A stretch of DNA of 64,000 bases, taken from assembly GCA_030390025.1 (NCBI GenBank), contig CM059426.1:88412001-88476000 (forward strand). The letters run 5' to 3'. Every line of letters begins with the position of its first letter. Within the stretch, counting starts at the first letter, position 1. Made by a program: the position numbers and the translations under genes. The DNA is from Squalus acanthias. Taxonomy: Eukaryota. The notes under the pieces are model-generated. The model ran no database searches and had not been told where the DNA came from. It worked only from the letters and a program-made list of their open reading frames with translations. This document shows positions 3,490 to 63,639 of the stretch, one piece after another.

Positions 3490-4588
3490 GAATCATAGAA
3501 TGGTTACAGCATGGATGAAGGCCATTTAGCCCGTCAAGCCCGTGCCGGCTCTCTGCAAGAGCACTTCAGCTAGTTCCACTGCCCCGTCTTTTCCCTGTAG
3601 CCCTGCAAATTGTTTTCCTTCAGGTACTTATCCAACTCCCTTTTGAAAGCCACGATTGAGTCTGCCTCCACCACCCTTTCAGGCAGTGCATTCCAGATCC
3701 TAACCACTCGCTGCGTAAAAAGGTTTTCCCCATTCTGCCAAATCCTTCCTAAAGTGCGGTGCCCAGAATTGGACACAATACTCCAGTTGAGGCCGAACCA
3801 GTGTTTTATACAGGTTCATCATAACTTCCTTGCTTTTGTACTCTATACCTCTATTCATGAAGCCCAGAATCCCATAAGCTTTTTTAACTGCTTTCTCAAG
3901 CTGCCCTGCCACCTTCAACGATTTGTGCACATATACCCCCAGGTCTCTCTGTTCGTGCATCCCCTTTAGGACTGTACCCTTTAGTTTATGTTTCCTCTCT
4001 TCATTCTTTCTACCAAAATGTATCACTTCGCACTTTTCTACATTAAATTTCATCTGCCACGAATTCGCCCTTTCCACCAGCCTGTCTATGTCCACTTAAA
4101 GTCTATCACTATCCTCCTCACTGTTCACTATACTTCCAAGTTTTGTGTCATCTGCAAATTTTGAAATTCTGCCCGGTACACCCACATCCAAGTCATCAAT
4201 ATATATCAAGAAAAGCAGTGGTCCGAGAACCGACCCTTGGGGAACACCACTGTATACCTTCCTCCAGTTCGAAAAACAACCGTTCACCACTACTCTCTGT
4301 TTCCTGTCACTTAGCCAATTTCGCATCCATGCTGTCACTGTACCTTTTATTCCATGGGCTTCAACTTTGCTGACAAGCCTATTATGTGGCACTTTGTCGA
4401 ACGTCTTTTGGAAATCCATGTACACCACGTCAACCGCATTGCCCTCATCAACACTTTCTATTACATCATCAAAAAACTCGATCAAGTTGGTTAAACATGA
4501 TTTGCCTTTAACAAATCCGTGCTGGTTTCCCTTAATTAATCCACACTTGTTCAAGTAACTGTTAATTATGTCCCTGATTATTGTTTCT
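3490..4588 (-). mobile_element. 5'-truncated, internally deleted CR1 LINE nested antisense in the CR1 at 1975-7575
   Basis: RT ORFs 4096-4554 (FADDTK) and 3700-4095; CR1 tail at ~3490; host sequence AACCTA repeated on both sides (TSD-like). Confidence 0.9.
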
Positions 4589-6364
4589 AAAACCTAATAT
4601 TAACTGTGATAGAATCAGTGTAAAAGGTATAGAGGGCACAGAATTCTTAAAATGCATTCAGGAAAACTTTTTTAGCCAGTACGTAGCAAGCCCAACAAGA
4701 GAGAGGGCGGTTCTGGACTGAGTTTTAGGGAATGAAGCTGGGCAGGTGGAAGGGGTATCAGTGGGAGAGCATTTTGGTGGCAGTGATCATAATTCAGTTA
4801 GATTCAGCGTAGTTATTGAAAAGGACAAAGACAGACCAGGCATAAAAGTTCTTAATTGGGAAAAGGGCAATTTTACGAAGCTGAGATGTGATTTAGCAAA
4901 ATTGGACTGGAAACAACTACTTGAAGGTAAATCAGTGTCAGAGCAGTGGAAGGCAATCAAGGAGGAGATAGTGAGGGCACAGAGCAAAAAAGTTTCCACA
5001 AAGAAAAAGGGTGCGATCCCAAATCTAGAGCCCCATGGATGTCAAGGGGCATACAGGGTAGGATAAGGAAAAAAAGGGAAGCTTGTCAGATACCGAGAGC
5101 TCAATACTACAGAAAGTCTAGAGGAGTATAGAAAGTACAGGGGTGAAATTAAAAAGGAAATTAGGAAAGCAAAGAGAGGGCATGAAAAATATTGGCAAGT
5201 AAAATCAAGGAAAACCCAAAGATGTTTTATAAATACATCAAGAGCAAGAGGATAACTAAAGAAAGAGTAGGGACTATTAGAGACCAAAAGGTCACTTTTG
5301 TGTTGAGGCGGAAGAAGTGGGTATGGCTCTTAATGAATACTTTGCGTCTGTCTTCACAAGAGAGAGGGACGATGCCGACATTGTAGGAGGAGGAGTGTGA
5401 AATATTAGATGAGATAAACATAGTGAGAGAGGAAATATTAATGGGGTAAGCATCTTTAAATATAGATAAATCGCAAGGCCCGGATGAAATGTATCTCTGG
5501 CTGTTAAGAGAAGCAATGGAGGAAATAGCGGAGGCTCTGACCATCATTTTCCAATCCTCTCTGGCTGCCGGAGGACTGCAAACGTTGTACCGTTGTTTAA
5601 AAAGGGAGAAAGGGATAGACCGAGTAATTACAGGTCAGTCAGCCTAACCTCGGTGGTGGGCAAATTATTGGAAAAAATTCTGAGGGACAGTATTAATTGT
5701 CATTTAGAAAGGCGCAGATTAATCAAGGACAGTCACCATGGAATTGTTAAAGGAAGGTCAGGTCTGACTAACTTGAATTAATTTTTTGAGGAGGTAACAA
5801 GGAGGGTTGATGACGAAAGTGCATTTGATGTAGTCTACATGGATTTTAGCAAGGCTTTTGACAAGGTCCCACATGGCAGACTGGTCAGAAAAGTAAAAGC
5901 CCATGGGGTCCAAGGGAAAGTGGCAAGTTGGATCCAAAATTGGCTCAGTGGCAGGAAGCAAAGGGTAATGGTCGACGGGTGTTTTTGTGACTGGAAGCAT
6001 GTTTCCAGTGGGGTTCCGCAGGGCTCAGTACTAGGTCCCTTGCTTTTTCTGGTATGCATCAGTGACTTAGACTTCAATGTAGGGGGCATGATTAAGACGT
6101 TTGCAGATGATACAAAATTTGGCTGTGAGGTTGATAGTGAGGAAGAAATCTGTAGACTGCAGGAAGATATCAATGGACTGGTCTGGTGGGCAGAAAAGTG
6201 GCAAATGGAATTCAATCCGGAGGAGTGTGAGGTAATGCATTTGGGGAGGCCTAACAAGGCAAGGGAATACACAATAAACGGTAGGATACTGAGAAGTGCA
6301 TGTCCACACTTCCCTGAAGATAGAACAGGTAGATAAGGTGGTTAAGAAGGCATAAAGGATACTT

Positions 6365-6975
6365 TACATTGGAGGACCAAACACAGATTGGGTGGCCGCT
6401 TTGCGGAACACCTCCGTTTTGTCCGTAAGGGTGACCCCAAGCTTCCGGTCGCCTGTCACTTTAATTCTCCGCTCCACTCCCACTCTGACATCTCCGTCCT
6501 CGGCCTCTTACACTGTTCCAATGAAGCTCAACGTAAGCTCGAGGAACAGCACCTCATCTTTCGATTAGGCACTTTACAGCCTTCTGGACTCAATATCGAG
6601 TTCAACAATTTCAGACCATAACCTCTGCCCCTATTCTTTTTCACATGGCAGCTGTTGATGATTCTGCCATTGCCATTTTCATTTCATCTAGACTCATCCT
6701 TTGTTTCTTAACTTGTCCCATTACCATCTTCTTTTGCCTTGCACCATCGTCCCTTTTGTCTCTTAATCTCTCCTGCCTTCCTTCCCATCAGACCTTCCCT
6801 TTTGTTCTTTCCTCCCCTCCCCCCTTTCCCTGCCCCTACACTTCCTTAAAAACCTTTTACATCTCCAACATTTTTCCAGTTCTGACGAAGGGTCATCGAC
6901 CTGAAACGTTAACTCTGTTTCTCTCTCTACAGATGCTGCCTGACCTGCTGAGTATTTCCAACATTTTCTGTTTTT
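6365..6975 (+). mobile_element. 5'-truncated Penelope-like element (GIY-YIG C-terminus plus pLTR) nested in CR1
   Basis: ORF 6388-6621 RFAEHL...PVACHFN...RKLEEQHLIFRLGTLQPSGLN is a PLE GIY-YIG C-terminus; flanked by degenerate TSD ATAAAGGATACTT / ATAAGAGATACTT; hammerhead motif at 6878-6914. Confidence 0.85.
6878..6914 (+). ncRNA. Minimal type I hammerhead ribozyme motif in PLE pLTR
   Basis: AGTT-CTGACGA-A-GGGTC(ATC)GACCT-GAAA-CG-TT-AACT: stem I, core CUGANGA, stem II, GAAA, palindromic ACGT stem III, UH site. Confidence 0.75.
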
Positions 6976-11303: not shown

Positions 11304-11579
11304 GGGCTGGATTTTGATACTGGGGCGGGTTGGGGTCGTGTCATCCGCATTTCGTGTTATCCACCCGCCTGCAATTGGATGTGGGAGATTGATGCAATTT
11401 TCACTTAATTGGGCAATTGCGTTCCAGCATGTGGGAACCCATGAACCAATTAGTGGTTTCAGTCTGAAAGTCGCCTCTGATGATGTCATCATTGCTGCTG
11501 CATTGCAGGTCAGAGACTACCTGGTCTCAGAGATTGCCTGGCCTTTGCTGTGAGAGGACCCGGATGCAACATGAGCAGC

Positions 11580-11637
<58 letters not shown>

Positions 11638-12126
11638 GAGGAGAGAAAGAGAGAGAGAGAGAATTTTTTTTCCCATCCAGGTCCTCTCACAGCAAAGGCC
11701 AGGCAGTCTCTGAAGACATTCAATGCAGCAGCATCAGAGGCGACTTTCAGACCTAATACTACTACTACCTTCATCACATCTCCGTTGTAATAGTGGACCT
11801 GCAAGCTGATAGTCAGCTATCCACTTGTGCTCCCGCCAGGTTTCACTGGCGTGTTTCACATCAGGCGTGCTTCACGTCAGAAAAGGGTTAAACTAGCTAA
11901 AATGTTTCAAAATGGCATTACAGAGCCAATTTAGGGCTTGTTAAGGGCTTTAATGGCCTCTCCCGCCTCTTGGAGGCGGGACGGAGTCGGGAACACCGCA
12001 CACGATTTTATCAAAATTGCGTGGAGGCGGAATGGAGGCGGGATCAAGTCCGCCCGCCACTTTTCGCAATTTTAACCCCCCACACGCCTCCAAACCCGCC
12101 TCCACGGCCCTATGAAAATCCAGCCC
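11304..12126. mobile_element. Harbinger-like MITE with internal inverted repeat around a (GA)n tract
   Basis: TIRs GGGCTGGATTTT / AAAATCCAGCCC; 3-bp TSD TAT at 11301-11303 and 12127-12129. Confidence 0.8.
11584..11661. repeat. (GA)n microsatellite
   Basis: Direct observation. Confidence 0.95.
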
Positions 12127-24856: not shown

Positions 24857-26122
24857 CTGAGGGGCAGGGAAAAGACAAAACCAAGATGAAAGTAAAGAGT
24901 TATACTGGAATGGTTCAAGTATTCCAGCTTTCTCTTTTCACACAAATGACATAGATGGCATTTCCTCATTGAATTGAATCCTTTCACCATCCAATGCTGA
25001 ACAGAAATGCTGTTCCTTTCGACGTACCTTGTTTGAAGATCTTAAAGGGGCACTATGCACATCTTCAGTCCACGTGTGCACAAAATTACAGTGTTGTCCA
25101 ACAGATATTGCTAACTAGACACAAGTGTGGCTTGGGCAATATCGTTTTAGCCATATGCACTAATTTTTGTAGAAAATGCCTTGCATACACTCACACAATA
25201 CAGGTAAATATACTACCCATGTGTATATTTACTTAACAAATATCTACCACCATTCAGTAATCAAGGAAATAAAGCATTCACAAATGATCAAAAAACACTT
25301 AAACTCTGCTTTTCATCCACCATTTTAGCAACAAACACACAAAAAGGTTAAAGTGCACATGCATACACCGTGCCAATAGGAGTATGGAGATCAAATGCCC
25401 AACGACAGTGTTTATTACTCATCTTTATTTACTAACCAGAAATACAATTAACCACATGTGGATTCTCAATTAGTCATATGTGGCTAGTGGCTGATGTATT
25501 GGGCAACACTAGCGTACAATAGGTACACTGGGATGCTCATAGAGCCTGTCTGCTGGCTGGTACGGAGCTTACTATAACTGGTTAGATTACAGATAGATTG
25601 GGAACTATCTTTTTCACAGTCTCCATCAGATACTGTACTCACAATAGAACTCAACAAATACTGTGTAAAAAAGACAAAGATGGTTCCTGATCTGTGTGTA
25701 AAAAGATGATTGCCAGACAGTGGACATGCCCCTTCCTTAAAACATGTCTGCCTCACTTCCACTTGAATAGATTAGCCTTCCAGTCCATTTTCCAATGATG
25801 TTTAAAAAGGGCCATTATAGGCCAACTGTGCAAAATGTGCAGGAGGTTAAACAGCTGACACGATGTAGTCCCCTCTTCTTTACCTTGTCCTTCACTTTTA
25901 AAAGTTTAATTAATAATTTATTTTCGACTAGTAGCTTCTTGTTTTAGAAGCATTTTTTCTTTTTAATTTGAGAACATGGCACAGGCTGCCCAGGTTCAAA
26001 TAACAGTCTTAAATGGTCCATACAGAAGAGATCATGATGTGGAGATGCCGGTGTTGGACTGGGGTGGACAAAAGTGAGAAGTCGCACAACACCAGGTTAT
26101 AGTCCAACAGCTTTATTTGAAA

Positions 26123-26160
26123 TCACAAGCTTTCGGAGCGGCTGCTCCTTCGTCAGGTGA
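26123..26160 (-). ncRNA. Minimal type I hammerhead ribozyme motif
   Basis: Minus strand reads TCAC-CTGACGA-A-GGAGC(AGCC)GCTCC-GAAA-GC-TT-GTGA. Confidence 0.78.
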
Positions 26161-26347
26161 AGTGAAGAAATACAAATGGGCACAGCATATAAAGACAGAG
26201 AACAATGCCTGTGCAGAGAACAATGTCAGACAACTACAGTTAATCTTTAAGGCAGTTAGAAAGATTAACTGTAGTCGTCTGGCATTGTTCTCTGCACAGG
26301 CATTGTTCTCTGTCTATATATGCTGTGCCCATTTGTATTTCTTCACT

Positions 26348-26385
26348 TCACCTGACGAAGGAGCAGCCACTCCGAAAGCTTGTGA
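26348..26385 (+). ncRNA. Minimal type I hammerhead ribozyme motif (mirror copy, one stem II mismatch)
   Basis: TCAC-CTGACGA-A-GGAGC(AGCC)ACTCC-GAAA-GC-TT-GTGA. Confidence 0.72.
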
Positions 26386-27689
26386 TTTCAAATAAAGCTG
26401 TTGGACTATAACCTGGTGTTGTGCGACTTCTCACTTTTATACAGAAGAGAACATAAGAACTAGGAGCAGGAGTAGGCCATTCGGCCTTCTGAGCCTGCTC
26501 CACCATTCAATAAGATTATGGCTGATCTTCCACTTCAACTCCACTTTCCCGCTGCATTCACTGACAAACAAAATAATGCAACAGAAATTAAAGACAAGAT
26601 TTTAGATTTTACAGGGGAAGCAGCACCAAAAATTTATATTTTCACATAATTTAAACAAATATTTTTTTTAAATTTCAAATCCCATTCCATTAAGTAGAAT
26701 TGTACAAAAGCTCAAAGTAAATGGGAGTTTTATTGGCACTACTGTAATATGTTTTCATTTACTTTGTTTATGCGCCAACCAGATTTGACCAAAACAATTA
26801 AAAATATTGGAAATAGACGACAGGTTGATCAGTACCCGAAATAGAAAGATAGGTAACTTCTTCCTGTCGTTTTCCCTTCTTTATTCTCTTGGATATGTCC
26901 TGACTTGTTCCATAAGATGGGCTCTTTAGCCTGACCATGCCAGTTCTGATGAAAGGTCACACCCAGGACATGAACCTATGCTCAGTGACCTGCTGTGCAC
27001 TTTCATTATTTTATGTTCTTTTTTCAGATTTCCCACCTTAGCAGTTTTATTTTTGCCGCTACTTGGATACTACGATGGATCTGCTTTAATCTGAGTGGAT
27101 GTGCTTTTCAAGCAACTTTTAAAATTACATGTCACAGGATATTGAATCACAACAGTATTACAGAAAGAGGTAGTTTTTTTTAATAGAAGTTTTGCATTGC
27201 TAACCTGGAGTTATGTCAGAGCCAGGAACAAGGTAAAACGTCTACGAAACTAATGGCAACTCACTTCTATAGCGGAGATTTTATACTTAAAACAGGTTTA
27301 AAACACCCTTTTGGGTAGCTGCACAATGCCGCTAAGTGTTCGAATATGAAGCTGTGCCCGCAATTCTCATATTCTGCATTCCAAATCAGGGCATGAGGCT
27401 TAATACCAAGCAGATGGCAGACACTTTCCATGGGGAGGGAGCGAGGAAAGGAAACAAAAAAATTGGAGACTCACATTGATGTCAGTTTAAAAAAAAGTAC
27501 TGCCAAAGGCCAAGCACCAAGTCATGTGCTGTTTCAGCCAGAAAATAGTGCATTGCAGGTAAAAACGAAAGAACTTGCACTTATATAGCACCTTTGATGT
27601 CCTCAGGATGCTTTACAACTAATGAAGTCATTTTGAAATATAGGCAAACGCAACAGCCAATTTGTGCAGGGAGACAATAAATGCATAAT

Positions 27690-52448: not shown

Positions 52449-52846
52449 GGAGTCTCTTCGGATCGGCCATTTTGCTGGGTGTCTCCCACGATGCTGGTAC
52501 TGTAGTCTCTTCTGATCCACCATTTTACTGTGTGTCTGCCACGCTGCTGGTACTGTAGTCTCTTCTGATCCACCATTTTGCTGTGTGTCTCCCACGCTGC
52601 TGGTACTGTAGTCTCTTCTGATACACCATTTTGCTGTGTGTCTCCCACGATGCTGGTACTGTAGTCTCTTCTGATCCACCATTTTACTGTGTGTCTGCCA
52701 CGCTGCTGGTACTGTAGTCTCTTCTGATCCACCATTTTGCTGTGTGTCTCCCACGATGCTGGTAGTCTCTTCTGATCCACCATTTTGCTGTGTGTCTGCC
52801 ACGCTGCTGGTAGTCTCTTCCTAGCCACCATTGTTCTGTGTGTCTT
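52449..52846. repeat. ~53-bp tandem array (about 7.7 units) upstream of the transposase
   Basis: Unit GTAGTCTCTTCTGATCCACCATTTTGCTGTGTGTCTCCCACGATGCTGGTACT; two units lack 5 bp. Confidence 0.92.
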
Positions 52847-52884
52847 TCCATCTTCATCGGCAATTATCTCCTCCATCTTGCATT

Positions 52885-54642
52885 ATGGAATTCCCAAAAG
52901 CTGGTCCAAGCAAAAGGAAGAGAGTGGTCTTAACTTTAAAACAGAAAATCGAGATATGCCAACGACTAGAAAGGGGAGAGAAGCGTATCAACATTATGAA
53001 TGAATTCAAAATCGGTTCGTCAACAATCTACGACATCAAATCGCAGAAGGATAAGCTGCTCAAGTTTTATTCAAGCTCGGAGACATGCAAGAGTGTAGAG
53101 AAACGGCGTACGCTTCGTAAGCCTAAGCTTGAAGAGCTGGATACCGTGCTTTATGAATGGTTTTCTCTTAAGCGTTCAGAGGGTGTTCCAATTTCCGGAC
53201 CCATGCTCATCGAGAAAGCGAAGGAATTCTACGATAGGATGGAGCTCACTGACAAGTGTGCTTTCTCCGATGGATGGCTAACGTGCTTCAAGTTACGGCA
53301 CGGGATACGACGACTCGATATTTCCGGGGAGAAGAAATCAGCTGATCACGAAGCCGCAGAAGAATACTGCAATTATTTCAATCGGATTGTGCAGCAACAT
53401 GATTTGTCGCCAGCACAGATCTACAATGCCGATGAAACTGGCTTGTTTTGGAGGTTTTTGCCAGAATCAACGCTTGCTGGGGCTAGTGAGGCTAATGCTT
53501 CAGGTTACAAGAAAAATAAAGATCGTGTAACCGTGCTAACATGTGCGAACGCTGCTGGATCACACCGGGTTAAACTTCTTGTTATCGGGAAGTATAAAAA
53601 TCCCCGTGCATTTAAAAATGTGAGGCACTTACCTGTTGAGTACAAAGCTCAAAAAAATGCTTGGATGGATAAGGAAATCTTCTCCGATTGGTTCCATCAT
53701 ATTTTTGTTCCATCTGTGAAGGAACATTTCCGCAGAATAGGGAAACCTGAAGATAGCAAATGCATTTTATTGCTTGATAATTGCAGAGCCCATCCGCATG
53801 AATCCCAGTTGGTTTCGGGAAATATTTTCACCATTTATTTGCCACCAAATGTAACTTCTCTCATCCAACCCATGGACCAGGGCGTTATCCAAAATCTGAA
53901 GTGTCATTACAAGAAAGACTTCCTACGTAAACTGCTAAGCCAAGATGAGAATATTCAAGATTTGCAGAAGGAATACAATATTAAAGATGCCATCTATAAT
54001 GTTGCATGTTCCTGGAAATTGGTGAAAGGTCACACTCTGAGGCAAGCCTGGTGCAAATTGTGGCCTTCTGTAATGTTTGCTGAAGGTTCTTCTTCAGAGG
54101 AGGAATTTCATGGGTTCAGTGTTCGTCCCAAGAAGAGTACAATAATGGAAATGGCTGGAATGGTGAAAAATGCAGGCCCAGCAAACCCTCTACGTCACCT
54201 CAGTGAAAGTGATATCGAGCAGTGGGTTGATGCAGATAGAGAAGTTGGTGTTGTGCATATGCTAAGTGATGATGAAATAATTCAGAATGTTTTGAATCCA
54301 AAGAAAGAAAAGGAAAGCGAGATGGAAAGTGAAGAGGATGAGATTTCTGAAGAAGAGAAGATTTCTTGGGCTAAAGCTGCAGAAGGATTTTCTACAATCC
54401 TCAAATTTGCTGAAAGGCAGAATTGCTACACTGCACAAGAAGTTATGCAACTCCATATTTTGCATTCCACCTTTCTACAGAAAAGGCAAGAGTCCACTAA
54501 GCAAACCGACATCCGCAACATGTTTAAGAAAGCTTCCAAAAGAGTCGCAGCAGCGGAAGTGCCTGAAGAATCGGTGGAACTGCGTGATCCTGATGACCCA
54601 GCTGGCACGGATATTTCTGATGAACCAGATGACTCGGAATAA
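52885..54642 (+). CDS. Tigger/pogo (jerky-like) DDD transposase, 585 aa
   Basis: ATG at 52885; CENP-B-type HTH ([15 protein letters not shown]), Tc5 HTH (LYEWF...[10 protein letters not shown]...FSDGWL..FK.RHGI), catalytic YNADETG / LLLDNCRAH / QPMDQG with 32 residues between the last two Asp; no stops. Confidence 0.95.
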
Positions 54643-55463
54643 GTGTACAGTCAACTACAGTACTGTAGACAGTCGTTTATAAGTTTTGTTTTACTGTTAA
54701 GTAATTAAAGAGTTATGGATTACCCTCAACTGGCATTACTGTACTTAATCAAGCATCTTCCACCATCCATTTAACACAACATTCTGTAGGTGAGTACCCA
54801 AATACTGTATACTGCACATTTCTTGATTTTTTTAGGTTAAAAATAGCCTCGGTAGATATAACTCTCCGTTATCCGGTACTTTCGATAAACCGGCACCACG
54901 CCGGTCCCGTCGATGCCGGATAAACGAAAGTTTCCTGTATATATCTTCCAGTTTTTGCTACATCAGAGACATGCCTCTAGCTCCCTACAACCAGGTGTCT
55001 AATTCCTTCCCTCTACAGTCAAGTCTGTGTGAAACAGCAGTAGCTTGAGAATTCCTTTAAGGCAGTTTAAAGATTTAATTGGGAAACAAACACCTAGGTG
55101 ACAGGGTGTATTGCACAAAGGATGTTTATGGAAAATATTATACGTTAAAATTATCTCCCCTATTTGTGAAACAGACAATTTACTTGAAAGAGAGATTAAA
55201 AACTCCAACAAATTGGCTAAAATGTAACTATTTATGAAAAAATTCAACTCATCTGCACAGATTTAATTTGTTCATTTTATGTTTGATTCAATAACTTCTA
55301 AAGTCTCTTTATTTTCTGCTATATTCTATAAGCCAATGAATAAAGTTCCAATACCTCTAATCAGCTTTCTACCTATTAGCCACCAAAAGTTCTCCCCATT
55401 TGTGCCTTAAAGTACAAAGAATTATCAGGGGAGTGTGATCTGTTTATTTGAAGATGTCTTTAC

Positions 55464-55813
55464 CTGTTGTAGAGAAGACATATGTTCCGATTGATTTTTT
55501 GGTCTGAGCGGTAACGTCTGTGATCCTCCCACATATCTTTGAGAGCATTCGGGAGGAGGACGATCAGGATGGGGATGAGGCTGATCACTGGCTGGAAGGC
55601 ATTGACGATGGGCACAAAGTTGAGCGCGGCAATGCAGATAAAATATACATTGGCCAGCCGGTGCAGCTGCTCAAAGAGATTCTTGGGCACAAAGGACCAC
55701 ACCGTGTACTTGGTTGTCTTGATCCCATTTCCCAAATATGGTTGGTTTGTAGCTTTTGTGCTCCCTTCATACAACAAATTCGAAACCACGATCCTCTTGG
55801 TGCCCTCCTTCAT
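55464..55813 (-). CDS. ATP10D: P4-ATPase first coding exon (N-terminus, TM1-TM2), ATP10A-like 'NFVP/AFQP' type
   Basis: MKEGTKRIVVSNLL...IKTTKYTVWSFVPKNLFEQLHRLANVYFICIAALNFVPIVNAFQP...KDMWEDHRRYRSDQKIN; phase-2 donor AG|GTAAAG fits the acceptor at 42484. Confidence 0.85.
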
Positions 55814-57014: not shown

Positions 57015-60000
57015 ATTGTGATCACTTGGTTTAAAGCGGCCGGGCCAAGCCTACAGTGCAATTTATAAACAGTGAAAACCAAAGCAATTTAATTTCTCTT
57101 CCTAAATAGGTACCAATCCCCTTCTAAAGAGCAAAGTATACCTTGGAGTGTGTATCATGAGTAGTACTTGTTCTAAAATCCACATTGTTCTCCCTGGCAT
57201 GAAGAGGATATTATTAAAACAAACTGGAAAGTATTGGGCTCCTTCATGAAATGCTACATTCATCCATTTCAGCAGACAATTAGTGCAGTGCATGTGCTTA
57301 AGGAGTGTAATCCAATGAAATCCTCCAACATGAAAAGAAGCGACTGTGTGGGACCCTCTGAGGCATAGAAGATGGTAAATGGTATATAGAGAAGGTAAAT
57401 CAGAAACACTACTTCAATTTAAAGTGCCATAGCAACATAAGGAGGCAGAAGTTCGACTCTGGCTTCAGGACAAAGTTCAAACTGAACAAATAGTTCCTCT
57501 TCACACAAAAGGTGATCAACACATGAAATGGGCTTCAGGATAGGGTAGCGGAGGCCAAAAATCTTGGAAGTATTTAAGAAAGTTAAATGCTGTGATAGGG
57601 CAACCTAAATTATTTTTTAATGATTGAAGTAACATGGACTGAATGCCCTTTCCCATCCGTAACTAACTTGTGTCTAGTCCTTACTAGATGGTGTCTAGTC
57701 CTTACTAGATGGTGTCAGTGAGTCAAATTTGATTTAGTCAGTCACAGGTGTCCTTTTGAAAAAAAAGTTAGAAGCACTGCCCACTGGACAGTCAAGTGCA
57801 CTACTGTAATAACATTTGATTTACAATCAGTACTCAGTTCAGCACGTAGGTCAAGAGAGTTGAACGTGACATCCATCACTCCTGTGTATCAGTTTGATTC
57901 AGTGACAGCACATTAACCTCTGAGGATTCAAGCCCCACTACACGACAAGCACATGATCTAGGCTGATACATCAGTGCAGTACTGAAGGATTGCTGCATGG
58001 TTGGAGGTGCTGCCTATCAGATGAGACATTAAACCAAGGCCCCATCTGCATGTTCAGATAGATCTCATGGCACGATTCAGAAAAGAGGAAGGGAGTTCTC
58101 TTGGTGTCCTGGCTATGATAAATTGACCTTTAGTGTTAGGGGGGGATTAAATAAGAACATAAGAACAGAAGAAATAGGAGCAGGAGTAGGCCAATCGGCC
58201 CTTCGAGCCTGCTCCGCCATTCAATAAGATCATGGCTGATCTGATCCTCACCTCAAATCTAAGAACACAAGAAGTAGGAGCAGGACCCGGCCACTCAGCC
58301 CCTGGGCCCGCTACGCCACCCACAGGGCCTCGACCGATCCGAACTCAGCCTCATGTCCAATTTCCTGCCCGCTCCCCGTAACCCCTAATTCCCTTTACTT
58401 CTAGGAAACTGTCTATTTCTGTTTTAAATTTATTTAATGATGTAGCTTCCACAGCTTCCTGGGGCAGCAAATTCCACAGACCTACTACCCTCTGAGTGAA
58501 GAAGTTTCTCCTCATCTCAGTTTTGAAAGAGCAGCCCCTTATTCTAAGATTATGCCCCCTAGTTCTAGTTTCACCCATCCTTGGGAACATCCTTACCGCA
58601 TCCACCCGATCAAGCCCCTTCACAATCTTATATGTTTCAATAAGATCGCCTCTCATTCTTCTGAACTCCAATGAGTAGAGTCCCAATCTACTCAACCTCT
58701 CCTCATATGTCCACCCCCTCATCCCGGGGATTAACCGAGTGAACCTTCTTTGTACTGCCTCGAGAGCAAGTATGTCTTTTCTTAAGTATGGACACCAAAA
58801 CTGTATGCAGTATTCCAGATGCGGTCTCACCAATACCTTATATAACTGCAGCAATACCTCCCTGTTTTTATAATCTATCCACCTAGCAATAAAAGCCAAC
58901 ATTCCGTTGGCCTTCTTGATCACCTGCTGCACCTGCATACTAACTTTTTGATTTTCTTGCACTAGGACCCCCAGATCCCTTTGTACTGCAGTACTTTCCA
59001 GTTTCTTGCCATTAAGATAATAACTTGCTCTCTGATTTTTCCTGCCAAAGTGCATAACCTCACATTTTCCAATATTGTATTGCATCTGCCAAATTTCTGC
59101 CCACTCACCCAGCTTGTCTATATCCCCTTGTAGGTTTTTTATGTCCTCCTCACTTTCTACTTTCCCTCCCATCTTTGTATCATCTGCAAACTTTGATATG
59201 TTACACTCGGTCCCCTCCTCCAAATCGTTAATATAGATTGTAAAGAGTTGGGGACCCAGCACCGACCCCTGCGGAACACCACTGGCTACTGGTTGCCAGT
59301 CCGAGAATGAACCATTTATCCCAACTCTCTGCTTCCTGTGAGATAACCAATCCTCCACCCATGCCAGAATATTACCCCCAATCCAGTGATTTTTTATCTT
59401 GAGCAATAATCTTTTATGTGGCACCTTGTCGAATGCCTTCTGGAAATCTAAATACACTACGTCCATTGGTTCCCCTTTATCCACCCTGTACGTTATGTCC
59501 TCAAAGAACTCAAGCAAATTTGTCAGACATGATTTCCCCTTCATAAAGCCATGCTGACTTTGTCCTATCAAATTATGTTTATCTAAATGTTCCGTTACTG
59601 TCTCCTTAATAATAGACTCCAAAATTTTACCCACCACAGATGTTAGACTAACTGGTCTATAATTTCCAGCTTTCTGCCTACTACCCTTTTTAAATAAGGG
59701 TGTTACATTAGCAGTTTTCCAATCTGCCGGGACCTTTGCTGAGTCCAGGGAATTTTGGAAAATTACCAAAGCATCCACAATCTCTATTGCCACTTCCCTC
59801 AAGACCCTAGGATGTAAGCCATCAGGTCCAGGGGATTTATCCGCCTTGAGTCCCATTATTTTACTGAGTACCAATTCCTTAGTGATTTTAATCGTATTTA
59901 GCTCCTCCCCCCCAGAGCCCCCTGTTTGTCCAGTGTTGGGATATTCTTAGTGTCCTCTACCGTAAAGACTGAAACAAAATATTTGTTCAGCATTTTTGCC

Positions 60001-61129
60001 ATCTCCATGTTTCCCACCATTAATTTCCTGGTCTCATCCTCTAAGGGACCTACGTTTGCCTTAGCCACCCTTTTTCTTTTTATATAACTATAGAAACTCT
60101 TGCTATCTGTTTTTATATTTTTTGCTAATTTATTTTCATAATCTATCTTCCCTTTCTTAATCAATCCTTTAGTTACTTTTTGCTGTCTTTTGAAGACTTC
60201 CCAATCTTCTATCCTCCCACTAAGTTTGGCTACCTTATATGTCCTTGTTTTTAGTTGGATACTATCCTTAATTTCTTTACTTAGCCACGGATGGCTGTCA
60301 TTTCTTTTAGACCCTTTTTTCCTCAGTGGAATATATATTTTTTGAAAGTTGTAAAATAACTCCTTAAATGAACAGCACTGCTCATGTACCGTCTTACCCT
60401 TTAATCTATTTTCCCAGTCCACTTTAATCAATTCCGCTCTCATACCATCATAGTCTCCTTTATTCAAGCTCAGTACGCTTGTCTGAGAACCAATCCTCTC
60501 ACCCTCTAATTGGATATGGAATTCAACCATGTTATGGTCACTCATTCCAAGGGGATCCTTAACTAGGACATTATTAATTAATCCTGACTCATTACACAAG
60601 ACCAGGTCCAAGGTTGCTTGCCCCCTTGTAGGATCAGTTACATACTGCTCAAGAAATCCATCCCTAATACACTCAATAAACTCTTCCTCAAGGCTGCCCT
60701 GCCCAATTTGATTTGTCCAGTTAATATGATAGTTAAAATCCCCCATAATTATAGCTGTTCCCTTATTACATGCCCCAACTATTTCCTGATTAATACTTCT
60801 TCCAGCAGAGTTGCAACTATTAGGAGGCCTATATACTACTCCCACTAGTGTTTTTTTCCTTTTATTATTCCTTATCTCCACCCAAACTGTTTCATTATCC
60901 TGATCCTTTGACCCAATATCATTTCTCTGTAATACAGTGATTCCTTCCTTTATTAACATAGCTACCCCACCTCCTCTTCCTTCCTGTCTGTCCTTCCTGA
61001 TTGTTAAATACCCTGGCATATTTAATTCCCAGTCGTTGTCACCCTGCAGCCATGTTTCTGTAATGGCCACAAGATCATAATTGAGAGGTCGCACAACACC
61101 AGGTTATAGTCCAACAGTTTTATTTGAAA

Positions 61130-61171
61130 TCACAAGCTTTCGGAGCTATCGATTGCTCCTTCCTCAGGTGA
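61130..61171 (-). ncRNA. Minimal type I hammerhead ribozyme motif (inverted arm)
   Basis: Reverse complement of 61996-62037. Confidence 0.75.
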
Positions 61172-61995
61172 AGTAAATTAGATACAGAATCGCCAAAGCA
61201 TATATAGATAGAAAACAAAGCATGTGTACCTTACAATTGCAGACCACCAAATTAAATCATCCTGACTATCTGCCGAGGTGCGATAAAGTTAATTAAGTCA
61301 GCCAGGAAGGTACCACATCAAAGACATAGCAAGATACAACTGAGACAATGAGGTGTAGTCGCAGGGGTTCTAACGTGTCAAAAGCTGCCGTCTGTATGTA
61401 AAACGAAAAGCTTTAAAATTTTTACTTTTTTACTGGGAAAATTTTTACTTTTTTACTGGGAATCACATCTGTGAACAAGCTAACGACGACTCGAGTCCGG
61501 ATCACGTCATGTATCGTGTCATAAAGCGGGTAAGCGTTCTCCAAGGCAACCTTAGAAACACACGACAACACAAAATCATCGAGTAGAAACTGATAGCCAA
61601 GTTCCGCACTCATGAAGACGGTCTCAATCGGGATCTTGGGTTTATGTCACGATACATGACGTGATCCGGACTCGAGTCGTCGTTAGCTTGTTCACAGATG
61701 TGATTCCCAGTAAAAAAAGTAAAAATTTTCCCAGTAAAAAAGTAAAAATTTTAAAGCTTTTCGTTTTACATACAGACGGCAGCTTTTGACACGTTAGAAC
61801 CCCTGCGACTACACCTCATTGTCTCAGTTGTATCTTGCTATGTCTTTGATGTGGTACCTTCCTGGCTGACTTAATTAACTTTATCGCACCTCGGCAGATA
61901 GTCAGGATGATTTAATTTGGTGGTCTGCAATTGTAAGGTACACATGCTTTGTTTTCTATCTATATATGCTTTGGCGATTCTGTATCTAATTTACT

Positions 61996-62037
61996 TCACC
62001 TGAGGAAGGAGCAATCGATAGCTCCGAAAGCTTGTGA
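61996..62037 (+). ncRNA. Minimal type I hammerhead ribozyme motif
   Basis: TCAC-CTGAGGA-A-GGAGC(AATCGATA)GCTCC-GAAA-GC-TT-GTGA. Confidence 0.78.
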
Positions 62038-62427
62038 TTTCAAATAAAACTGTTGGACTATAACCTGGTGTTGTGCGACCTCTCAATTTTGTCCACCCCA
62101 GTCCAACACCGGCATCTCCGCATCATGACCACAAGATCATACCCATACGTAGTTATTTGTACCGTCAATTCGTCTATTTTGTTACGAATGCTGCGTGCAT
62201 TCAGATAAAGAACTTTTAAATATGTTTTGTGACAATTTATTCCTGCTTTTACCCCCTTTACTACTTTACCTTTATCTTTATATATTCTGTCCCTTCCTGA
62301 CACGCTCTGGTTTTTAATTACCCCACTGCTACTTTGCTCTATTGCCTTCTCCGTTGACATTTTTATTTTTTGCTCTCTTGAAACCTCCCCCCCATTAATT
62401 AGTTTAAAGCCCTCTCTACAGCCCTAG

Positions 62428-63339
62428 TTATTCGATTCGCCAGGACTCTAGTCCCAGCACTGGCCAACGGAACAGCTCTCTCCTGTCCCAGTACTGGTGC
62501 CAGTGTCCCAGGTAGCAAAACCCATTTCTCCCACACCAGTCTTTGAGCCATGCATTTAACCCTCTGATTTTATTTACCCTAGCCAAATTTGCTCGTGGCT
62601 CAGGTAGTAATCCAGAGATTACTAACCTAGAGGTTCTGTTTTTTAATTTGGCCTCTAGCTGCTCATACTCCCTCAGCAGAACCTCATTCCTTGTCCTATC
62701 TATGTCATTGGTACCAACATGGATCACGACAACTGGATCTTCCCCCTCCCACTCCAAGTTTCTCTCCAGCCCAGAGGAGATGTCCTTAACCCTGGCACCG
62801 GGCAGGCAACATAGCCTTCGGGACTCTCGCTCTCGGCTGCAAAGAACCCTATCTATCCCCTTAATGATACTATCCCCTATCACTACAACATTTCTTTTTA
62901 CTCCCCCCACTTGAATGGCTCCCCGTACCACGGTGCTGTGGCCAGGTTGCTCATCCTCCCTGCAGTCCCTGCTCCCGTCCTCACAGGGAGTAAGAGCCTC
63001 GAACCTGTTGGACAAGAGCAAGGGCTGCGGCTCCTCCAACACTACCTCCTGGATCCCCGTACCTGCCTCACTCGTAGTCACACCCTCCTGTCCCTGACCA
63101 CGGACTACATCTGAATTAGTTAATCTAATTGGTGTGACTACTTCCTGGAACACAGAGTCCAGGTAACTCTCCCCCTCCCTGATGTGTCGCAGTGTTTGAA
63201 GCTCGGACTCCAGCTCATCAACACGGAGCCGGAGTTCCTCGAGCAGCCAACACTTACTGCAAATGTGATCACCGTGAACATCAATGGTGTCCTCCAGCTC
63301 CCACATATTGCAGCAGTAACACATCACCTGCTCTCCCAT
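62428..63339 (-). CDS. CR1 ORF1p (Cys/His zinc finger-like motif, coiled coil, SGNH esterase); C-terminus probably altered by a small deletion
   Basis: CYCCNMW...HICSKC, LEELRLRVDELESEL, VVVIGDSIIKG, CCLPGARVKD, VIHVGTND. Confidence 0.9.
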   Translation of the reverse strand: MGEQVMCYCCNMWELEDTIDVHGDHICSKCWLLEELRLRVDELESELQTLRHIREGESYLDSVFQEVVTPIRLTNSDVVRGQGQEGVTTSEAGTGIQEVVLEEPQPLLLSNRFEALTPCEDGSRDCREDEQPGHSTVVRGAIQVGGVKRNVVVIGDSIIKGIDRVLCSRERESRRLCCLPGARVKDISSGLERNLEWEGEDPVVVIHVGTNDIDRTRNEVLLREYEQLEAKLKNRTSRLVISGLLPEPRANLARVNKIRGLNAWLKDWCGRNGFCYLGHWHQYWDRRELFRWPVLGLESWRIE

Positions 63340-63403
63340 TCTATGTAATTAATTAAATTTATTATTATTTACCCTTTAATTAATTTAAATTAAAATACAC
63401 TTC

Positions 63404-63639
63404 TGTGACAGTTTGTTCTGAGTCTCCTCACTCCGTCCTGTGGCAGTTTGTTCTGAGTCTCCTCACTCTGTCCTGACAGTTTGTTCTGAGTCTCCTCACT
63501 CTCTGTCCTGACAGTTTGTTCTGAGTCTCCTCACTCTCTGTCCTGACAGTTTGTTCTGAGTCTCCTCACTCTCTGTCCTGACAGTTTGTTCTGAGTCTCC
63601 TCACTCTCTGTCCTGTGGCAGTTTGTTCTGAGTCTCCTC
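63404..63639. repeat. 33-37-bp tandem monomers (about 6.6 units) forming the CR1 5' end
   Basis: Unit GACAGTTTGTTCTGAGTCTCCTCACTCTCTGTCCT. Confidence 0.92.

Follow-up and report, generated by a model that had tools for sequence, protein, structure and literature searches.

A probable 5'-truncated Penelope-like element joined head-to-head to its own inverted copy within a CR1 element of Squalus acanthias

In a 64,000-nucleotide stretch of the Squalus acanthias genome (hereinafter, the window), we characterized a 1-kb palindrome that is very likely the 3' end of a 5'-truncated Penelope-like element (PLE), joined head-to-head to its own inverted, tail-less copy inside a CR1 retrotransposon, likely through a single target-primed fold-back event, and likely inert. 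The features of this insertion, its target and a second copy in the same window are listed in Table 1.

Table 1. Features of the focal insertion, its target and the second copy (window coordinates)
Feature	Position	Strand	Remarks
Host CR1-type LINE interrupted by the PLE insertion	58351..63348	-	ORF1 esterase, ORF2 APE endonuclease and RT; Pfam Lipase_GDSL_2, Exo_endo_phos, RVT_1; translations
Left TSD, 13 bp	61067..61079	.	Part of CR1 ORF2; 13/13 identical to 62129-62141
Left arm, 446 bp: PLE 3' end without tail, in inverted orientation (inverted pLTR)	61080..61525	-	Reverse complement of 61641-62087, 2 differences
Minimal type I hammerhead motif, inverted arm	61130..61171	-	Core start 61167; motif scan; identical to the plus-strand motif
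Single-copy spacer (hairpin loop), 115 bp	61526..61640	+	Native PLE sequence from 61527
Final 45 codons of the GIY-YIG endonuclease ORF	61527..61661	+	In-frame TAG at 61584-61586 (residue 20); translation; tblastn with P0004
Sense arm, 447 bp: end of the ORF followed by the pLTR	61641..62087	+	
Minimal type I hammerhead motif, sense arm	61996..62037	+	Core from 62000; motif scan; fits the min-HHR description in PMC4209133
One-sided PLE tail, 41 nt, element 3' end	62088..62128	+	Right side only
Right TSD, 13 bp	62129..62141	.	
Second, independent fold-back copy, sister subfamily	26032..26438	.	Mirror-image plan, tail on left

Anatomy and identity of the insertion

The initial annotation, made from the letters of the sequence, had described two inverted arms of about 446 bp with about two differences, a 40-nt tail on one side only, and a 13-bp TSD around the whole unit, and all of these features were recovered. 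Self-comparison gives arms of 446 and 447 bp with exactly two differences: a T run near position 61449 differs in length by one base, and the base at 61519, located 7 nt from the inner junction, is substituted. The tail, on the right side, is 41 nt long, or 40 nt when a shared A is attributed to overlap at the junction, and the TSD is perfect over all 13 positions (16 of 17 if extended leftwards). On the plus strand, the parts of the element follow in the order endonuclease end, pLTR, hammerhead and tail. The sense arm includes a 23-24-nt tandem duplication (61704-61751). A TATA-like run (61961-61967, plus strand, mirrored in the left arm) is located 32 nt before the hammerhead core; it could mark an outward-pointing pLTR promoter, and a putative TATA box has been noted in rotifer pLTRs (PMC3846280).

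When the insertion and one copy of the TSD are removed in silico, an open CR1 ORF2 endonuclease frame is restored across the site, which fixes both ends of the insertion. The host CR1 is otherwise nearly intact, with long ORF2 frames and one frameshift near 59900-59946; its ORF1 is cut short near 62428, and a short tandem repeat of 33-35 bp lies at 63403-63500, just past the start of the ORF1 frame.

The CR1 is collinear on both sides of the palindrome; this argues strongly against a fold-back artefact, in which such collinearity would be lost. Assemblies are known to have difficulty with inverted PLE structures (PMC8557442), and among the 32 contig pieces listed from four sequencing runs, a small share of all pieces, none bridges any of the three focal junctions. 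Nevertheless, a chimeric fold-back read introduced in the library or the assembly, or arm identity inflated by consensus polishing, appears extremely improbable given the perfect TSD, the same orientation of the CR1 on both sides with the frame restored, the one-sided tail at the family's own boundary, and the arms of the second copy, which differ at 4 of 179 sites.

The spacer had been read as the C-terminus of a PLE GIY-YIG endonuclease interrupted by one TAG, and the element as a shark PLE; both assignments are borne out by protein comparisons. In a tblastn search, residues 600-643 of P0004, a Neptune-type shark RT+EN protein (Heptranchias perlo as named by its source), match the window with 86% identity (E 7e-18); at the focal copy, the match is to 61527-61658 only. 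A search of longer proteins with the 45-residue peptide yielded matches for all 18 candidates, 8 of which carry shark names and one of which is labelled 'hypothetical'. The relative P0005 matches the Pfam GIY-YIG domain (E 2.3e-5); Pfam searches with the 45-aa spacer peptide and with the left-arm frame 61461-61580 gave no match. A family contig from one sequencing run (X10, record 9) aligns from 61527, and its 53 further upstream letters do not fit. As a side observation, in a shark XRCC5 (Ku80) isoform (P0003), the PLE endonuclease C-terminus is annotated as the last exon, and a FAM204A isoform (P0017, identified by name only) also matches the peptide; these matches reflect either exonisation or annotation error.

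Together, the endonuclease C-terminus, the inverted copy, the tail, the variable TSD and the hammerhead identify the focal insertion, with high confidence, as a 5'-truncated EN+ PLE with an inverted pLTR. An autonomous full-length EN+ PLE is ruled out by the presence of the C-terminal fragment alone and by the in-frame stop. Affiliation with the Neptune clade is likely, judging by motifs in the relative P0004 rather than by an RT tree: P0004 carries the linker, and the corresponding region is absent from the truncated focal copy, which has no RT. The linker marks both the Neptune and the Nematis clades (PMC8557442), and Neptune and Poseidon are given as the vertebrate PLE clades (preprint 10.64898/2026.07.22.740005).

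The initial statement that PLEs can insert with inverted pLTRs agrees with the literature, where this is the usual form (PMC8557442, PMC3846280): the typical layout has a 5'-truncated copy in inverted orientation at the 5' end, with a tail of 30-40 bp on one end (PMC8557442), and the Pen2/Pen2a copies are described with an inverted pLTR that is 37 bp shorter, a tail, TSDs of 9-10 bp and in-frame stops (PMC3846280). Inverted pLTRs and 3' extensions are presented as routine features in repeat curation (PMC8969392). The focal copy shares with canonical EN+ PLE insertions the 5' truncation, the adjacent inverted copy that is approximately 37-41 bp shorter, the one-sided tail, the variable-length TSD, the insertion into another non-LTR element and the in-frame stop. 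It differs from those described in that it retains only the last 45 ORF codons, in its shark host, and in its 41-nt tail compared to 30-40. Similarly, P0004 is 86% identical to the focal copy over the last 44 endonuclease residues but comprises the RT, the linker and the full EN, whereas the focal copy keeps only the C-terminal piece with a stop. In a search of titles and the opening parts of abstracts, with most subscription papers and Repbase outside its scope, none of the papers listed dealt with shark PLE fold-backs; a description of the family may exist. The focal copy is a real, well-preserved, ordinary PLE insertion of a published type, and likely a dead copy.

Hammerhead motifs, the second copy and the family

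The annotated presence of a complete minimal hammerhead core in each arm was confirmed by a motif scan, with cores at 62000 (plus strand) and 61167 (minus strand). Across the 64-kb window, the scan returned four matches, these two along with 26352 (plus) and 26156 (minus), all within the two PLE copies; none of the 40 Markov-resampled 64-kb sequences contained a match. Rfam reported no hammerhead family at E<=5. Its sole match, to the MIR847 precursor (36.9 bits versus a gathering score of 184), was rejected as hairpin-driven.

In the plus-strand motif, stem I is formed by 61996-61999 and 62034-62037 and stem II by 62008-62012 and 62021-62025, with the cut predicted after 62033; the parts include a 5-bp stem II, an extra A between the core and stem II, GAAA-GCU-U, and a 4-bp stem I. 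At the sequence level, the motif shows the characteristics of min-HHRs, namely, the CUGANGA and GAAA core, the extra nucleotide 9/10.1, the G10.1-C11.1 pair, the palindromic 15.2-16.2 and a helix I of 4-5 bp. The core, the extra nucleotide, the G10.1-C11.1 pair, the palindrome, the 4-bp helix I and the arrangement in opposite-strand pairs are all shared with the minimal hammerheads described in metazoan PLEs (PMC4209133). In contrast, helix II consists of 5 bp compared to 7-8 bp in the Schistosoma families, and the focal cores, whose cleavage is predicted, are approximately 830 bp apart compared to the 100-700 bp given for opposite-strand pairs in the same source.

Between the two subfamilies in the window, the motif differs at N7 and in loop II, and in the family contigs, 4-21% of the depth shows A>G at 62010, which leaves the pairing intact, or G>A at 62036, which disrupts a pair; no two-sided, compensatory stem change was seen in the two window subfamilies and the family contigs. 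Unconstrained cofolding of two hammerhead monomers produced no stem-III dimer, a result that is uninformative for a 4-bp helix. The hammerhead is probably an ordinary pLTR ribozyme that is doubled only through the duplication of the pLTR.

The second copy is approximately 80-84% identical to the focal 3' end. Its 179-bp arms are identical at 175 positions, its loop is only 11 nt long, and its TSD measures 12 bp; both strands carry a hammerhead motif, and in the right arm, one G>A disrupts a base pair of stem II. Over its last 38 nt, the focal tail shares 37 positions with that of the second copy, the inverted arm of the second copy ends no more than 3 nt from the register of the focal arm, and in both window copies, the inverted arm ends at the inner tail boundary. 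The second copy is located in an intron of an ATP10D-like gene, between the exons at 24857 and 32810.

Several other elements were observed in the window. At 6340-6620 (plus strand), another PLE GIY-YIG endonuclease, distinct from the focal one, is represented by a C-terminus with a frameshift that is 36% identical to P0004, and the motif scan found no hammerhead match near it. Two old, diverged inverted repeat pairs with approximately 69-70% identity are present at 4010-6248 and 11462-11752, and an open frame of 605 codons at 52825-54642 (plus strand) encodes a Tigger/pogo-type transposase (Pfam CENP-B_N, HTH_Tnp_Tc5 and DDE_1).

The wider family was surveyed by aligning contigs from 4 of 24 sequencing runs (X1, X5, X10 and X7, with X5 at approximately 55%) to 61500-62420, which includes one arm only; the filter required contigs to be at least 88% alike, so that more distant coding copies drop out. 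The family is very abundant, with 18,681, 12,311, 2,369 and 1,941 aligned contigs across the four runs. Many of these contigs leave the alignment at 62126-62127 into unlike flanks (62 and 50 in X5, and 12 in X10), and two further opposite-strand joints were found in family contigs within the last 110 bp. Summed depth, which does not measure copy number, drops from the bin 62058-62088 to the tail bin in all four runs, a pattern that fits many tail-less ends. The T>C differences in X1, X10 and X7 are all accounted for by listed places, none of them at 61584, and X5 has one that is unlisted; by this account, the stop codon seems to be the common state among contigs that are at least 88% alike. 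Given an in-frame stop apparently common to the closest relatives, the parent is likely defective, and the contig data suggest a stop-bearing subfamily mobilised in trans. The initial inference of an active shark family is only partly upheld: there are many copies, but the stop seems common in the closest subfamily.

Origin and age of the palindrome

At positions 61886 and 61919, approximately 94-100% of the aligned depth differs from the focal copy (the focal allele at 61886 is absent from the depth of run X1), and both arms carry the rare allele. Shared rare alleles imply either a single molecule or locus as the template of both arms or subsequent homogenisation, for instance by gene conversion. 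The initial annotation had proposed fold-back or template-switch synthesis, and the origin of the unit in one retrotransposition event is supported by the anatomy, the shared rare alleles and the short loops. Within this scenario, we give a slight preference to fold-back over the other routes to the same structure, given that loops as short as 115 and 11 nt point to coupled ends.

Under the fold-back model, a PLE RT/GIY-YIG protein, probably acting in trans on the stop-bearing subfamily, would cut the CR1 with a 13-nt stagger. Reverse transcription would start at the outer tail end (62128) and halt after approximately 602 nt, at 61527. The cDNA end would then snap back over the 115-nt loop and be self-extended to the inner tail boundary (62087), and the extended cDNA would finally be connected with the left end of the target. 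No direct trace of snap-back priming is seen, because microhomology at the inner junction (61525/61641) does not exceed 1 nt and there are 2 mismatches in the first 8 nt.

The stop of the inverted arm at the inner tail boundary appears to be better explained by two RT start sites (PMC11167929) than by fold-back. A dimeric PLE protein could prime both cut target strands at the outer and inner RT start sites, with the truncated cDNAs joined head-to-head. In vitro, the Anolis PLE protein, a predicted dimer, cuts and extends both strands, and its RT starts at two sites that bracket the tail (PMC11167929); the position of the arm ends in both window copies and the virtual lack of inner-junction microhomology are compatible with such priming. 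Conversely, loops of 115 and 11 nt imply close truncation points, which should be rare for independent cDNAs (n=2), palindromic junctions are reported as abundant (PMC3846280), and the Anolis element belongs to Poseidon, not Neptune (PMC11167929). Two-strand priming is accordingly a possible but doubtful route. Self-priming on antisense RNA has been proposed earlier for the inverted pLTR (PMC3846280). All three routes, namely, fold-back, two-strand priming and antisense-RNA self-priming, yield an identical dead product.

Several other classes of elements and events were considered and rejected. L1 twin priming inverts without duplicating and does not fit the duplicated, inverted structure. MITE/TIR DNA transposons possess symmetric terminal inverted repeats and a short TSD of family-fixed length, whereas the focal copy has a one-sided tail and a retroelement ORF remnant, and the TSDs of the two copies are 13 and 12 bp long. 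A preprint on L1 fold-back (10.1101/2024.12.14.628481) concerns flanking genomic DNA and provides an analogy only. Like the focal copy, non-LTR retrozymes are non-coding PLE derivatives with a type I hammerhead (10.64898/2026.07.22.740005); however, they are described as head-to-tail tandems, whereas the focal copy is head-to-head, with one motif per strand, and the absence of head-to-tail units with hammerheads excludes a retrozyme here.

A related scenario is that the palindrome itself is mobile, as a member of a MITE-like or retrozyme-like family whose copies move in hairpin form. The long terminal inverted repeats and the TSD fit such a family, non-autonomous PLE derivatives exist (10.64898/2026.07.22.740005), and the stop codon is apparently common to close relatives. 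Yet, the ends are asymmetric, there are no head-to-tail repeats, the window copies differ in the inner junction, arm length and TSD length (13 versus 12 bp), and none of the joints listed in the family contigs repeats the 61525/61641 junction. Together, these observations render a mobile hairpin very improbable.

A very recent origin, as initially claimed, is possible, but the arm differences do not establish it. At the mutation rate of the epaulette shark, 7e-10 per generation (PMC10587355), one or two differences in 446 bp correspond to 1.6-3.2 million generations (95% bounds, 0.07-11.6 million), and zero post-insertion differences would still be compatible with up to 6 million generations, so that 0-2 arm differences permit up to approximately 6-12 million generations. 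Arm identity was moreover rejected as a clock because one of the differences is a homopolymer indel, the other is located at the junction, and the arms can be homogenised.

Ribozyme, double-stranded RNA and genomic context

The initial annotation had also raised the possibility of a built-in on/off switch or a source of long dsRNA. Because the arms are head-to-head, any read-through transcript, from either strand, would contain the antisense arm first. In the MFE fold of such a transcript, 445 arm-arm pairs are predicted, and the ribozyme was paired in all three transcript prefixes that were folded; forcing stems I and II changes the energy from -860.1 to -788.8 kcal/mol, a cost of approximately 71 kcal/mol. 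Each strand has a single sense motif, and single minimal hammerheads are reported not to cleave in vitro, with dimers cleaving only weakly (PMC4209133); the Anolis ribozyme required the protein for cleavage, and insertion in vitro did not depend on the ribozyme (PMC11167929). A transcript that started inside the pLTR would point outwards and lack the hairpin, and its ribozyme would still be a monomer. For the read-through transcript, folding predicts an off state of the ribozyme and no evident on state. The antisense-first geometry, the energy cost and the single motif per strand all speak against the proposed switch.

Long dsRNA, in the form of the 445-pair duplex, is predicted if the locus is read through, but the idea has already been published for Penelope: inverted regions of rearranged copies have matching siRNAs in Drosophila (PMC3681739). 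The focal copy shares the long inverted repeat with those siRNA-yielding copies; it is known from DNA alone, and its dsRNA is predicted. That the palindrome acts as a regulated ribozyme switch, or has been selected for the production of long dsRNA or siRNA, is highly improbable, considering that the layout recurs as a by-product in the second window copy and that the focal copy sits inside another repeat, even though its site may be in an intron of the ATP10D-like gene.

This gene is encoded on the minus strand. A first coding exon of a P4-ATPase, with an ATG and a splice donor, was detected at 55463-55747 (minus strand) and is 37-50% identical to shark ATP10D-like N-termini, compared to 72-100% for the remaining 12 exons (8108-42492); this first exon may belong to a paralogue or be an alternative one. 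The PLE site is 5.3 kb upstream of this divergent exon. The orthologous first 160 residues of four shark ATP10D-like proteins were not found in the 43-64 kb interval, so that the PLE site may be intronic to a longer isoform.

In one further scenario, shark genomes would contain near-perfect PLE fold-backs in large numbers, many of them derived from a stop-bearing subfamily and mobilised in trans. Those located in introns, the focal copy in the ATP10D-like gene possibly among them, would give rise to long dsRNA in pre-mRNAs, which would be edited or diced and would silence the family, while the antisense-first order would keep the ribozyme off and spare the host transcript. We regard this scenario as very improbable; if it is true, it would represent a self-limiting loop in vertebrates, in which fold-back copies within genes would be favoured by selection over tandem ones.

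Taken alone, the focal copy matters little, being one copy of an insertion type that has been described. It is nevertheless a clean example, both ends being fixed by the intact target frame, and a collection of such copies could settle whether the inverted pLTR originates by cDNA fold-back, priming at both ends or self-priming on antisense RNA. Should small-RNA silencing in sharks prove to be fed by fold-backs in introns, the observation made in Drosophila would be extended to vertebrates.
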